This document shows, in pieces, positions 45,901-49,222 of a stretch of DNA of 64,000 nt. Under the pieces are notes generated by a model, which worked only from the letters and a program-made list of their open reading frames with translations, was not told where the DNA came from and searched no databases. Source of the stretch: Asterias rubens (taxonomy: Eukaryota); contig NC_047066.1 in NCBI RefSeq assembly GCF_902459465.1, forward strand, positions 6,569,047 to 6,633,046. The letters run 5' to 3'. The stretch's first letter is position 1. Each line of letters opens with the position of its first letter. A program made the translations under genes and the position numbers.

Positions 45901-48900
45901 AGTGCTTGCTGTTGTATTAACTGTGAGGGGTTTGTTGGTTGGTGCCTTCAGTTGGTGTAATGAGTGCTTTGCTGCTAAAAGATGCAAACAAATTATAAAG
46001 GGATTGTATAAAAGGAACCGTTTTTTATATATTTTATTTTAACCATCATTAGCTTTCCAACCATAGAAACCTTGAGCATAGAGGGTGAAGAAAACTTCCG
46101 TTCTAGGTCACTGGGGATATTTTGATTAGACAACAAGGCACAGACCAAGATCAGAATGTTGGAAATGTCTAACATCAGGATGCACATAGACTGCACAACC
46201 CAAGAACGTGTCATTTCACATTGTTTTTCGAAGTAACATACGGGCCGGAAAATGGAATGTAAACATAAGCAGACCCCTGCCAAGCACTTCGGTCCAAAAG
46301 GCAGAACTGGAAATTCTAGAAATACATTTTCCAATTCTTACTCAAGCAGGTTTTTGAAATACTTTTCAGACCATTTAAGGGAGGCAACAAAATCAGAAAA
46401 ATAAGACTCAAGTAGGAAGAATATCCTGCCTGGACTTACTAGGTGGTGACTTTGGCTCCCGTCGTACATGAGGAACGCCGAGCGACGTCCGCATGGTAGA
46501 CGAGGATGCAACCGCTGCAGCAATCTGACTGCGGTTTGACGTACCGTGGTGCTGGTGCTGGCCTGCTGCAAGCTGCTTGTGCTGTTTGTATAGTGGTGAT
46601 GGTTGACTCCCTGGTAAGGCTGCAAATGTCAAACAATTATTAGAGATTAGATTTTAAAATGATTCAGGCCTGGAATTTGTGAGAAGACTAAGACCATTTT
46701 CATTTTGCAAAGGGCACTTCCATTGGAATTTTTTTTAAAGTCTATGGGAGACTTCTGGTGGAGCACCAAGGCCAAAACCAGGGGCAAGGGAGAGGCCATG
46801 GCCTGTGTGGCCTTTTAGTATTTCCAGGCCTGTGATTGGATATTGTGTATTTATTAAGGAAATTACGAACCAGGGCCCAACTTCACAGTGCTGTGCTTAA
46901 AAGCACAAACAGTAGCTAAGCACAGCAAAATTATGTCTACAAGAATATTGTTACCAGCCAAAATACCAATAATTTTGGGCATTGCCAAAAAGTTTAATTA
47001 TACTTTTTGGCCCTTCATGCCCTTCATGATTGAGGGGGGCATCATTTTCTACTATTCTCAATACATATAAAAACCCATTCTTACCTGGAATTGGAATGAT
47101 GGTCTTCTGGCTAAGAGTGACGTTGGGCTCATGTGAAGATGGAAACCCGAGGGGTTTTCTCTCAGGTGTATTACTGCTATCAAGACCTGCAGAAAAAAAA
47201 GGGGGAAAAAAATCCATAGATATCATTATTGGCCGTGTTTTGTTTAATGGAAAAGTCTTTTAAAATCTTGTATCACCATGCTGGGCTGATATAATCTAAT
47301 ATTCAAAAGGGAAACTGCCACGAAAATCAGTTTTTCCATTTTCTAAAGCACTTTAAAAAAAGTTGAAATCAGGTGAGATGTTACATGTGGAAAAAAAATT
47401 AAAATTTAAACGGTATCAAATAATTTACTATAAGGAAAACTGGGATGTCTGGCTGATGCTTCCCAGTTGGTTTCATAAGATTGGTTGTGATTCCTTGGTA
47501 CACAGCATCGATTGTGTGGCTTCTGACTTGCACCATCCAACAAAGATGTTGACAAAACAGTTGGTAGAGCACAATACTCCGAAGATCATTGGTTCAAATC
47601 CTGCTCTATTTAATATTTCTTTGTTCAACACACACAAAATTAAATGGTGATGACTTTTAATTCTTTTAACATTTACCTGCTTGGCTGTATGTCCTCTTCC
47701 TGTCCATGTCGGGACTAGCAGTTGGCAGGGCACCAGGGAAGCTTTTGCGTAGCTCCTTGGCCTTTATCTGTGATGATAATGCTGATACTGCAGGAGGAAG
47801 CTGTGTTGAGATGGCCACAGGTGTGCTCAGTGGTCGGGTGCTACCACTGTTGGTAATGACTTTTACCTAAGGAGGCAAATTAGAAATTGATTATTTGACA
47901 ATTAGGGACAGGCTTGCAGCTTGAGTGTCCTTCTTCAACAAAATGTTGATTTTTCCATCACAGCTTGGAATTTTTTTTTTCAGTACAACAAAAATAAAAT
48001 AAATGGGATTTTGAATCCATAGCTAGGGTTAAGAAATAGCTGGAAAACAAAATACTTAAACAAAAAGAAGATTTTTTACCTCATCATTGATTGTGATCTC
48101 TTCTTCACGGCCTTCCAGTTTGTGATTCATCATGTAGTTATGCAGAGTTGGACTTGGCCGTTTCTTCCACGCTATGAAATCCATCATGTTGTGTCCATTC
48201 TCCAAGAAGAACAGCTCTATTAATCTCTCCTTGTAACCTTCTTGCAAGTCATGCAAGGTTTTGAGTTTGTGCTCGAGTAAACGAGTTCTCAGTTCAGCCA
48301 CCTCATTGGTGGCGGGGGGATGGTCTGTTTCAGAGGCCATCAGTGGGGATTTGCGCATTCGCGATGGACTGGACGGTATAGGGTTTGTCCGTGCTGGGCT
48401 GCTCAGACTTCTGTGGTAGGCACCGCCACCGGCTGTGGGGCTCTTCCGGTCCGGTGCACCTCGTGTGGGACTGTGGCTGCTCATTCTCCGTGCTGCGCCA
48501 AAGTTGAGTCCGGAACTTGACAATGGTGGCATGGTAGATCTGGGCGAGCCTTGACCATGGTGGTGTATGGTTCCCACTGGTTGATGGTGGCTGGGCAGCA
48601 GCAAGGACTGTAGTTGAATTTGCTCTTGCGATATCTGGGGCTCCTCTCCTAATGAAAATAGCTTAGGGGTGTTGTGAAAAACATACGGGTTTGTGGTCCC
48701 GATGCTAGTTGGTGGAGTATTGACACTCATCTGCTGCATAGAGAGACCAGTGCTTGGATCCACAAAGCCAGGACTCAGCTGCAGATTGATCACCTGATTC
48801 GACGTGCCTGCAATGAGCTGGGTCCGCAGACTTGCCAGTTGCATGAAGGCTTGTTGCCTGGCGACGTCCTGATGATTCTGCTGTTGCTGCTGCTGCTGCA

Positions 48901-49222: not shown

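Follow-up and report, generated by a model that had tools for sequence, protein, structure and literature searches.

The window, that is, the whole 64,000-nucleotide stretch of Asterias rubens DNA analyzed here, carries a remodeller gene whose exons, motifs and signals, as described below, all lie on the minus strand. Exon 1 (49222..48080) opens at an acceptor AG (49224-49223) and closes at the donor GAG|gtaaaa after 48080; its coding part (48080..49198, 373 codons) encodes a Q/P/S-rich N-terminus followed by an EP400_N core ending in ...ITINDE. Exon 2 (47677..47866, 190 nt), delimited by the acceptor ttag|GTAAAAGTC at 47866 and the donor CAG|gtaaat after 47677, encodes a second conserved block and ends in phase 1 with a good donor. 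The peptides quoted for this region in the initial annotation were indeed read from these 2 exons. Since exon 1 opens at an acceptor, there should be at least 1 non-coding 5' exon further upstream. The previously suggested start codon, an ATG in the context ACCATGC with A at -3 (49196..49198), stands up as a candidate: it is the first ATG of exon 1, its context is conserved in the relative L001, and 23 of the 24 bases of the preceding 5' untranslated stretch (49199..49222) are identical in that relative. In vertebrate EP400 and in an oyster transcript, the start codon likewise lies inside the equivalent exon. Thus, we infer that the ATG at 49198..49196 is the probable start codon; as read from the sequence, the frame is open from this ATG back to the acceptor, so that a coding exon upstream of 49222 is, strictly speaking, conceivable. 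A CpG-rich patch at about 50500-52000 is a possible promoter. Overall, exon 1 is 84% identical to its counterpart in L001 over 1165 nt and exon 2 is 84.6% identical, with the conservation confined to both exons and its onset placed exactly at the exon-1 acceptor. A Nckap1-like gene, the upstream neighbour of the gene in L001, was not found within the window.

A profile search of the translated exons 1 and 2 confirmed the EP400_N-type motif that the initial annotation had placed at the N-terminus. The match to Pfam EP400_N (PF15790) was significant (95.6 bits, E=4.1e-27; gathering cutoff, 27 bits), with residues 278-407 aligned to profile positions 331-464 of 490; in the assembled 1367-aa model, the domain scored 77.5 bits over residues 264-407. 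Furthermore, when a 152-residue block was compared with PDB sequences using phmmer, it matched human EP400 353-489 (E=7.6e-20), in an alignment containing the human strings quoted previously. The next-best matches had E>0.5 and the EP400 match is therefore far beyond chance, whereas human SRCAP yielded no match to the block at E<=1 in the same search. The whole 436-aa N-terminus returned nothing from the PDB sequences, most likely due to low-complexity or bias filtering, given that the trimmed 152-aa block did recover EP400.

The EP400_N core consists of two parts, a ~60-residue helical unit built around L-x-ELFFL-x3-N-(M/L)-MD-(F/Y)-x2-WKK and a block reading INDEVKV-x-T.... The exon-1 portion of the core (residues 264-373; 48080..48409) is supported by the Pfam stretch and the human EP400 match, and in an AlphaFold2 model the block is predicted to form a confident long helix (block residues 15-50, pLDDT 84-94) and two short helices. 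Conservation of the core motif extends from the window species and two close relatives to oyster, crab, a tunicate and two arthropod-like proteins, and to EP400 of mammals and other vertebrates; its L, E, L, N and D positions do not vary in ten taxa. Upstream of the stretch aligned by Pfam, a short conserved motif (48542..48574) is also present in P0002 and P0003 (TIHHQGQ, TIHHHGQSP) and in the first exons of vertebrate EP400 (GGTIHHLGPQSP). The position of the INDE|VKV intron apparently coincides with the start of the segment missing from human EP400 isoform 2.

Predicted splicing over 17 GT-AG exons joins this head to the remodeller core in a stop-free 1367-codon ORF carrying EP400_N (264-407), HSA (613-680) and SNF2 (1049-1334). 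Because the block is continuous with HSA and SNF2 in one stop-free ORF, it is part of the remodeller gene; the flagged exons share one reading frame with those coding for HSA and SNF2, which speaks against the separate upstream gene that the initial annotation had named as a possible refutation. Exons 3 and 4 (about 46610..46440 and 45971..45691; boundaries approximate) encode an S/T/P-rich linker and were placed by frame-compatible GT-AG junctions and the stop-free assembly; the ERAKQ|EAQVMQR junction is uninterrupted in the oyster transcript P0009. They are followed by the pre-HSA and HSA exons (45257..45072, 44262..44122 and 43256..43055; Pfam HSA, 81.5 bits in the exon concatenate and 70.3 bits in the assembled model) and by a segment spanning 34387..41968, which comprises acidic linker exons (41968..39888) and the exons for the SNF2 ATPase N-lobe (38716..34387; Pfam SNF2-rel_dom, 295-299 bits). 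The ATPase C-lobe exons (from about 25545, then 24371..24132 and 22701..22567; boundaries approximate) were recognized by Pfam Helicase_C (91.2 bits) and by tblastn of the transcript-derived protein P0128. The two lobes are ~9 kb apart in the genomic sequence, with Q-rich exons in between. Among PDB sequences, the HSA/ATPase core was closest to human SRCAP (836 bits), followed by EP400 (516), SWR1 (475) and INO80 (322), and the combination of HSA with a split SNF2 ATPase closer to SRCAP, EP400 and SWR1 than to INO80 places the protein in the SWR1 class. A small exon of 28 codons, phase 0 at both ends (20124..20207), aligns to SRCAP LTPIERYAMKFLEASLEEVSREELKQAE and EP400 LTPIEKYALNYLE. Elsewhere in the window, a giant ORF (58387..63969), in which Pfam found no family, ends in a stop ~9 kb upstream of the gene and was treated as a separate neighbouring gene; an Rfam scan gave one tRNA-like match only (26197..26258), and ARAGORN found no tRNA genes.

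The first of two possible C-termini is encoded by a large exon of 1337 codons (15171..19181; stop at 15170..15168). Its first ~45 codons are common to EP400-type proteins, the remainder being an S/P/Q-rich, low-complexity tail, and tblastn homology with EP400-type transcripts extends to the internal donor described below. Five residues before the stop lies the AT-hook-like motif KRGRGRPRK (15186..15212), a single motif at the extreme C-terminus that scored 13.2 bits with Pfam AT_hook (cutoff, 17.4; E=0.084). Neither the 1337-aa exon nor its last 124 aa matched any PDB sequence, with no match to full-length human SRCAP at E<=0.1 or E<=10, and the last 509 aa had no match at E<=0.001 among 1.84 billion representative proteins. 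With no homologue found, the label "SRCAP-type", applied to this tail in the initial annotation, is reduced to an analogy at the level of a motif. Two AATAAA signals (14125..14120 and 13741..13736), 1.0-1.4 kb past the AT-hook stop, are motif matches that could serve as poly(A) sites of a short-tail isoform.

The AT-hook exon had also been taken for the terminal exon, but exons of an EP400/DOM-A-type tail lie further downstream on the same strand (10625..10475, 9228..8963, 8643..8416, 7342..7203 and 6250..~6109). They were recognized by their match to human EP400, their splice phases and tblastn, including searches with spider, annelid and vertebrate EP400-type proteins; their concatenate (10625..6109) matches human EP400 2246-2527 at E=1.7e-83 and has no SRCAP match. 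One of them (8643..8416) is SANT-like, and Pfam Myb_DNA-bind_6 scored 19.9 bits, below the cutoff of 22.9. Further Q/A/T-rich ORF pieces span 676..3048 (about 3048..2782, 2353..1988, 1433..1290 and 984..690; boundaries approximate), and the gene continues past the low end of the window. Thus, a SANT/Myb-like region follows the ATPase and is itself followed by Q-rich sequence, as in an EP400/DOM-A-type C-terminus. A degenerate duplicate of the first exon of this tail is present at 10926..10873.

The two tails can be reached by mutually exclusive, frame-compatible paths, namely read-through of the large exon to the stop at 15170..15168, or splicing from 19047 or 20124 to 10625, the two phase-0 donors being compatible with the phase-0 acceptor. 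The donor at 19047 belongs to a candidate internal alternative 5' splice site, AAG|GTgcat (19045..19049, phase 0), which was placed where EP400-type homology leaves the large exon and has a weak donor score (1.6). In P0128, an SRCAP-like helicase C-lobe is joined directly to an EP400-type tail. EP400-type homologues contain about 18 extra residues (...YSMEYVYEDVDGQTEVMP) before a WxPPTPP motif; no mini-exon for the ...DGQxEVMP segment preceding WxPPTPP was found between 19046 and 10640. Judging from the 1337-codon open frame and from the EP400 match, each tail appears to be under evident coding constraint, and the locus resembles a two-tailed gene of the DOM-A/DOM-B style, both 3' ends of which may be used. 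Given the EP400-type exons downstream, the gene is no hybrid in which an SRCAP tail follows an EP400 head, but an unduplicated Domino-type gene with both tails.

Three other readings of the locus deserve consideration. It could be argued that the EP400_N likeness merely reflects the composition of Q/P/S-rich sequence, considering that the first 260 residues are of low complexity and that the 436-aa N-terminus found no PDB counterpart with phmmer. However, the matched stretch is itself not of low complexity, its Pfam score reaches 3.5 times the curated threshold, and the trimmed block retrieved human EP400 and shares the five invariant residues with the ten-taxon alignment; we therefore reject a compositional origin, which would be extraordinarily improbable. 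Alternatively, exons 1 and 2 might make, or also serve, a separate short N-terminal-only product resembling EP400NL or the short EP400 variant, which would sequester BRD8 into free TINTIN. In humans, EP400NL is a gene of its own and EP400 also has a short N-terminal splice variant (PMC9253478), and the DNA is compatible with early polyadenylation in the intron after exon 2. Yet the phase-1 end and good donor of exon 2 and the frame-compatible junctions onward to the HSA exons speak for continuation into the remodeller, as do transcripts or annotated proteins of oyster, crab, crayfish and tunicate, in which EP400_N and HSA are held in one chain; nor is there a second copy of the N-block within the window. 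We consider such a product unlikely, and as an additional isoform it would be compatible with, rather than exclusive of, the main explanation.

The remaining reading concerns the other end of the gene, where the exons from 10625 to beyond the window edge (<1) might represent a separate or decayed gene fragment, leaving an EP400_N-headed protein with the AT-hook tail only. The weak joining donor leaves room for this interpretation, and the degenerate duplicate at 10926..10873 shows some local rearrangement. Against it, the tail exons retain open frames, GT-AG sites and compatible phases, and the strength of their match to human EP400 implies purifying selection. Moreover, no promoter-proximal, HSA or ATPase exons are present between 15171 and 10625, P0128 links an SRCAP-like C-lobe straight to the EP400-type tail, and a two-tail design has been documented for the dom genes of Drosophila and other arthropods (PMC7239659). 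A detached fragment thus seems improbable.

Outside the window species, EP400_N was detected above the Pfam threshold in a crab Domino, an oyster transcript, a tunicate protein and an arthropod-like protein, and public crustacean proteins named "Helicase domino" and "helicase SRCAP" carry PF15790. In the oyster, the intronless ORF P0009 (615 aa), from a transcript-derived contig of 2.3 kb, has the same blocks contiguous with HSA. By contrast, Pfam did not detect EP400_N in bird and fish SRCAP, where HSA begins at about residue 80-90. The oyster gene model K1QQY7 is without the EP400_N block that the oyster transcript has; public gene models can therefore miss the block, which may explain its apparent vertebrate specificity. 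The initial annotation regarded the N-domain as specific to vertebrate EP400 and proposed that it was present in the ancestral Domino protein and lost from SRCAP. The premise is wrong, since the domain is already on record in crustaceans and occurs in the other invertebrates listed above. The distribution of the domain does fit ancestral presence followed by loss from SRCAP, although this inference adds little, being already implicit in public annotation; the EP400_N finding itself is correct but not new.

Taken together, the data make it highly probable that 47677..49222 represents the first two coding exons of a single, unduplicated Domino/EP400/SRCAP orthologue with a putative BRD8-docking head, an HSA/SNF2 core and two alternative tails. 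Exons 1 and 2 encode the EP400_N core, which is tethered by the S/T/P-rich linker to the pre-HSA/HSA region and the split SNF2 ATPase in the same polypeptide. In human EP400, BRD8 is bound directly by aa 194-446, with EP400NL as a competitor (PMC9253478); TINTIN has been placed on EP400-N via BRD8 by cross-linking and modelling (PMC11330486; bioRxiv 10.1101/2024.07.30.605802). By analogy, the block most likely docks a BRD8 orthologue which anchors TINTIN, the human fragment (194-446) being larger than the conserved block. In this manner, the TINTIN reader module (BRD8-MRGBP-MRG15) would be attached to the remodeller scaffold by a flexible tether. The N-terminus would be common to both isoforms here, whereas in humans it is carried by EP400 and not by SRCAP. 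At the 3' side, reading through the 4-kb exon would produce the long disordered tail with its terminal AT-hook-like motif (DOM-B/SRCAP-like), and splicing from the weak internal donor, or leaving the exon out altogether, would lead to the downstream SANT and Q-rich exons (DOM-A/EP400-like). The more specific proposal, that this is a non-arthropod "one gene, two tails" Domino with a constitutive EP400_N head, an AT-hook tail made by read-through and a SANT/poly-Q tail reached through the weak internal donor, has in our judgement an even chance of being correct. If both isoforms are expressed, the splice-isoform solution known from arthropods would be ancestral to a wider animal group, and vertebrate SRCAP and EP400 would represent pre-existing isoforms partitioned between duplicates, the N-terminal dock subsequently disappearing from SRCAP; a BRD8 dock would still have been part of the ancestral SWR1-type isoform. 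The locus is consistent with loss of this dock from SRCAP after the vertebrate duplication. The EP400_N-HSA-SNF2 order is already on record for public crustacean and tunicate proteins and was also seen here in an oyster transcript and an arthropod-like protein, and BRD8/TINTIN anchoring has been published for human EP400, so the value of the locus is modest: it offers a clean genomic picture of the undivided ancestral state, in which one gene unites a head of the EP400 type with an SRCAP-like core and with tails of both types.

As in human EP400, the core, aligning to residues 353-489, precedes HSA, from which a long linker separates it, and the SANT region matches residues 2246-2527. However, the alignment of the window protein is limited to the last ~145 of the 490 profile positions, its upstream part being lineage-specific and of low complexity except for the TIHHxGQxSP motif, and the HSA/ATPase core is nearer to SRCAP (836 versus 516 bits). 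Human SRCAP, in turn, is the best match for this core and for the post-ATPase LTPIERYAMKFLE segment, and both proteins have a long disordered tail, with an AT-hook-type motif close to the C-terminal end in SRCAP and the AT-hook-like KRGRGRPRK, below the Pfam cutoff, in the window protein; in contrast, it has neither the EP400_N block nor the SANT tail, and the AT-hook tail of the window protein has no detectable SRCAP homology. EP400NL is homologous to the same N-terminal region of EP400 and binds BRD8 (PMC9253478), but is a short independent protein that has no HSA, ATPase or SANT region, whereas the block analyzed here sits in a full remodeller. The N-terminus of yeast Eaf1 is comparable in its proposed role, as a scaffold anchor for TINTIN (PMC9253478, PMC11330486), and is not known to resemble the block in sequence; it binds Eaf5, which takes the place of BRD8 as the adaptor anchoring TINTIN to NuA4. 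Drosophila dom and other arthropod orthologues have two alternative C-termini, one with SANT and Q-rich sequence and a shorter one without a predictable fold (PMC7239659). Like Drosophila Domino (DOM-A/DOM-B), the window gene is a single gene with a common N-terminus, HSA and ATPase and two C-termini, its isoforms being predicted from DNA, and crustacean Domino proteins likewise bear EP400_N. Unlike the Drosophila protein, however, its short-type tail ends in an AT-hook-like motif, and the second block (VKVIT...), missing from the arthropod sequences examined, is shared by the window protein, oyster and vertebrates.

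An EP400_N-type block is indeed encoded in the first coding exons of the Domino gene, and the similarity is far beyond chance. When 49500..47400 is read as its reverse complement (minus-strand gene), exon 1 follows an acceptor tttttcag/GACCCC (first exon base, 49222), contains an ATG in the context ACCATGC at 49198..49196 and stays open for 373 codons to a donor GATGAG/gtaaaa, ending at 48080. Exon 2 (47866..47677) extends from an acceptor ttag/GTAAAAGTC to a donor CAAGCAG/gtaaat. Both peptides quoted in the initial annotation were found exactly in these exons. The spliced 436-residue product matched the Pfam EP400_N profile (PF15790) at 95.6 bits (curated cutoff, 27; E=4.1e-27). 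Among PDB chain sequences, the 152-residue block alone was aligned by phmmer to human EP400 residues 353-489 (E=7.6e-20; next matches, E>0.5), and the alignment reproduced the human strings which the initial annotation had given. The whole N-terminus found no match in the PDB chain sequences with phmmer, most likely because of low-complexity filtering.

The human EP400 chains 8qr1_A and 8xvg_H were compared with the block. In isoform 2 (3123 aa), similarity ends just upstream of the exon 2 start, INDE/VKV (47866/48080). The 36-residue difference between this isoform and the canonical one suggests a cassette exon. The position of this intron thus appears to be shared by the window species and human.

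The 24 bases between the exon 1 acceptor and the ATG contain no further ATG and differ by 1 base from those of L001, a relative's contig taken from an ENA assembly. The frame is open through this stretch, so that an additional upstream coding exon joined to exon 1 is formally possible. L001 is 84% identical in the exons; the alignment is limited to exons 1 and 2, leaving the introns unaligned, and conservation starts precisely at the exon 1 acceptor. The window as a whole has a CpG observed/expected ratio of 0.56. Higher values occur in two patches located 1.3-5 kb upstream of exon 1, 50500..52000 (0.83-1.25) and 54000..54500 (1.2), which are candidate sites of the promoter and a 5' non-coding exon.

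Downstream of the block, the same strand carries exons for HSA, the SNF2-related ATPase N-lobe and the Helicase_C lobe. We joined successive open pieces through GT-AG pairs scored with a simple splice-site matrix. The resulting 17-exon prediction, which extends from the ATG to the ATPase N-lobe, has compatible phases throughout and is stop-free across 1367 codons; in this single model, Pfam placed EP400_N at 264-407, HSA at 613-680 and SNF2-rel_dom at 1049-1334. The model is independently supported by the exon-only conservation in L001 and by the oyster protein P0009, in which both N-terminal blocks are contiguous with the HSA region. P0009 is considered transcript-derived because its 615-aa ORF runs uninterrupted along a Logan contig of 2.3 kb. 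With 836 bits, human SRCAP is the best match of the HSA-ATPase core, followed by EP400 (516) and yeast SWR1 (475).

The initial annotation had regarded the domain as vertebrate-specific, which is wrong: in precomputed and re-run Pfam scans, EP400_N was above threshold in a crab protein, Chionoecetes 'Helicase domino' (44.8 bits), P0009 (98.9 bits), a protein of the tunicate Clavelina (37.4 bits) and the arthropod-like protein P0011 (33.1 bits). Its proposal of an ancestral Domino block that SRCAP later lost fits this distribution, and is already implicit in public annotation. SRCAP fragments from birds and fish, with HSA starting at about residue 80-90, had no EP400_N in Pfam, and full-length human SRCAP, present in the PDB sequence set, was unmatched by the block even at E<=1 (phmmer). 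Alignment of ten sequences revealed an invariant core, L-x-E-LFF-L ... N-x-M-D ... L. A second block, INDEVKV-T ... TPVAI-T-LPP-V-A, is common to the window species, oyster and mammals and is lacking in the arthropod and tunicate sequences. Compared with P0009, the oyster 'Helicase domino' model P0027 (UniRef K1QQY7) lacks about 115 residues, among them the EP400_N core and the VKVIT block, and accordingly precomputed Pfam lists HSA alone for it; the discrepancy reflects either a gap in the annotation or alternative isoforms. Gene-model error, as in the omission of the core from K1QQY7, may be one reason why the block looks vertebrate-specific.

Several features surround these exons. A ~140-bp repeat is present in at least 5 introns (26351..26495, 40965..41064, 42423..42554, 44593..44730 and 46155..46290) and in L001 (10843..10987; 78-81% identity). 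One copy adjoins a tRNA-like Rfam match at 26197..26258 (34.2 bits), where ARAGORN makes no call; the repeat may represent a tRNA-derived SINE family. Outside the exons, the window and L001 share just one conserved stretch that does not appear to be a SINE, 47080..47210 in the intron after exon 2 (131 bp, 75.8% identical to L001 11699..11830). It may be an intronic element that has been conserved, a small exon used alternatively, or a further repeat. Upstream, on the same strand, 58387..64000 (-) is a single K/S/D/E-rich open frame of >1860 codons that runs off the window and stops at ~58387; it has no Pfam match. Within the frame are a tandem duplication of ~1176 bp (~392 aa), with copies at about 59.36-60.54 and 60.54-61.7 kb, a 174-bp repeat in 1.9 copies (62544..62870) and, near both ends, the motif LL(A/K)DKGK(M/L)L(K/T)IFKQ(Q/E)A. 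In L001, a Nckap1-like ORF (7636..7983) on the opposite strand precedes the first coding exon of Domino by ~0.8 kb. No counterpart was found within 15 kb upstream in the window, and thus the two neighbourhoods differ.

After the ATPase, a small exon (20207..20124, minus strand) is followed by a 4011-nt exon (19181..15171, minus strand), open for 1337 codons with a stop directly after. This is the exon that had been taken for an AT-hook terminal exon and an SRCAP-type tail. An AT-hook-like motif does stand at its C-terminal end, at 13.2 bits, under the Pfam AT_hook cutoff of 17.4. Similarity to full-length human SRCAP was undetectable, and the last 509 residues had 0 matches among 1.84 billion representative proteins; the resemblance to SRCAP is at the level of motif analogy only. 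The exon is probably not the last of the gene, as exons matching human EP400 lie farther downstream on the minus strand (10625..10475, 9228..8963, 8643..8416, 7342..7203 and 6250..~6109), followed by Q/A/T-rich pieces up to the window edge. Their concatenate matched the SANT-containing region of human EP400 (2246-2527; E=1.7e-83) and not SRCAP. Since the interval separating the two tails is free of N-terminal and ATPase exons, the downstream exons are most plausibly part of the same gene. Their first acceptor, at 10625, is in phase 0, as are two upstream donors, a strong one at the end of the 20124 exon and a weak internal candidate (AAG/gtgcat) after 19047, exactly where EP400-type similarity leaves the large exon. 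A degenerate, frame-shifted copy of the start of the first tail exon, 304 bp upstream of it (10873..10926, minus strand), is probably the decayed product of a local duplication, or a pseudo-exon. Two adjoining ORFs at 4263..5678 (-) match RVT_1 (47.1 bits and, below the cutoff, 20.4 bits) and are a frame-broken reverse-transcriptase retroelement remnant inside an intron of the EP400-type tail.

Human EP400 194-446 binds BRD8 directly, and EP400NL, a stand-alone homologue of the EP400 N-region, competes for BRD8, giving a free TINTIN complex (PMC9253478). Cross-linking mass spectrometry placed TINTIN on EP400-N via BRD8 (PMC11330486), and in a structural model of native TIP60 the EP400 N-terminal region tethers BRD8 by a ~340-residue linker (bioRxiv 10.1101/2024.07.30.605802). 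The conserved block falls within the BRD8-binding fragment. AlphaFold2, run with the ten-sequence alignment, predicted a long helix at block residues 15-50 (pLDDT 84-94) and then two short helices (mean pLDDT 65.6, pTM 0.38), which fits a small docking unit that is flexibly tethered. Given this position and the helical prediction, we infer by analogy that the block would dock a BRD8 orthologue.

The gene is an unexceptional orthologue of a well-known gene, and its order of domains is already on record for public proteins; what is added is that an EP400-type tail is also encoded at the locus, and that the SRCAP-type tail comes down to a motif-level analogy. Of the Drosophila domino isoforms, DOM-A has a SANT domain plus Q-rich sequence and DOM-B a shorter tail without predictable fold; Scacchetti et al. 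described a pair of C-terminal isoforms for dom orthologues of other arthropods as well (PMC7239659). With two tails and compatible phase-0 junctions, the window locus has this layout, and both mRNAs would be made from one gene. It may be an instance of the two-isoform design outside the arthropods; in that case it would favour a partitioning of isoforms when SRCAP and EP400 duplicated in vertebrates. As the gene model makes the head constitutive, the putative BRD8 dock would be on both tail isoforms, unlike in human, where the labour is divided.
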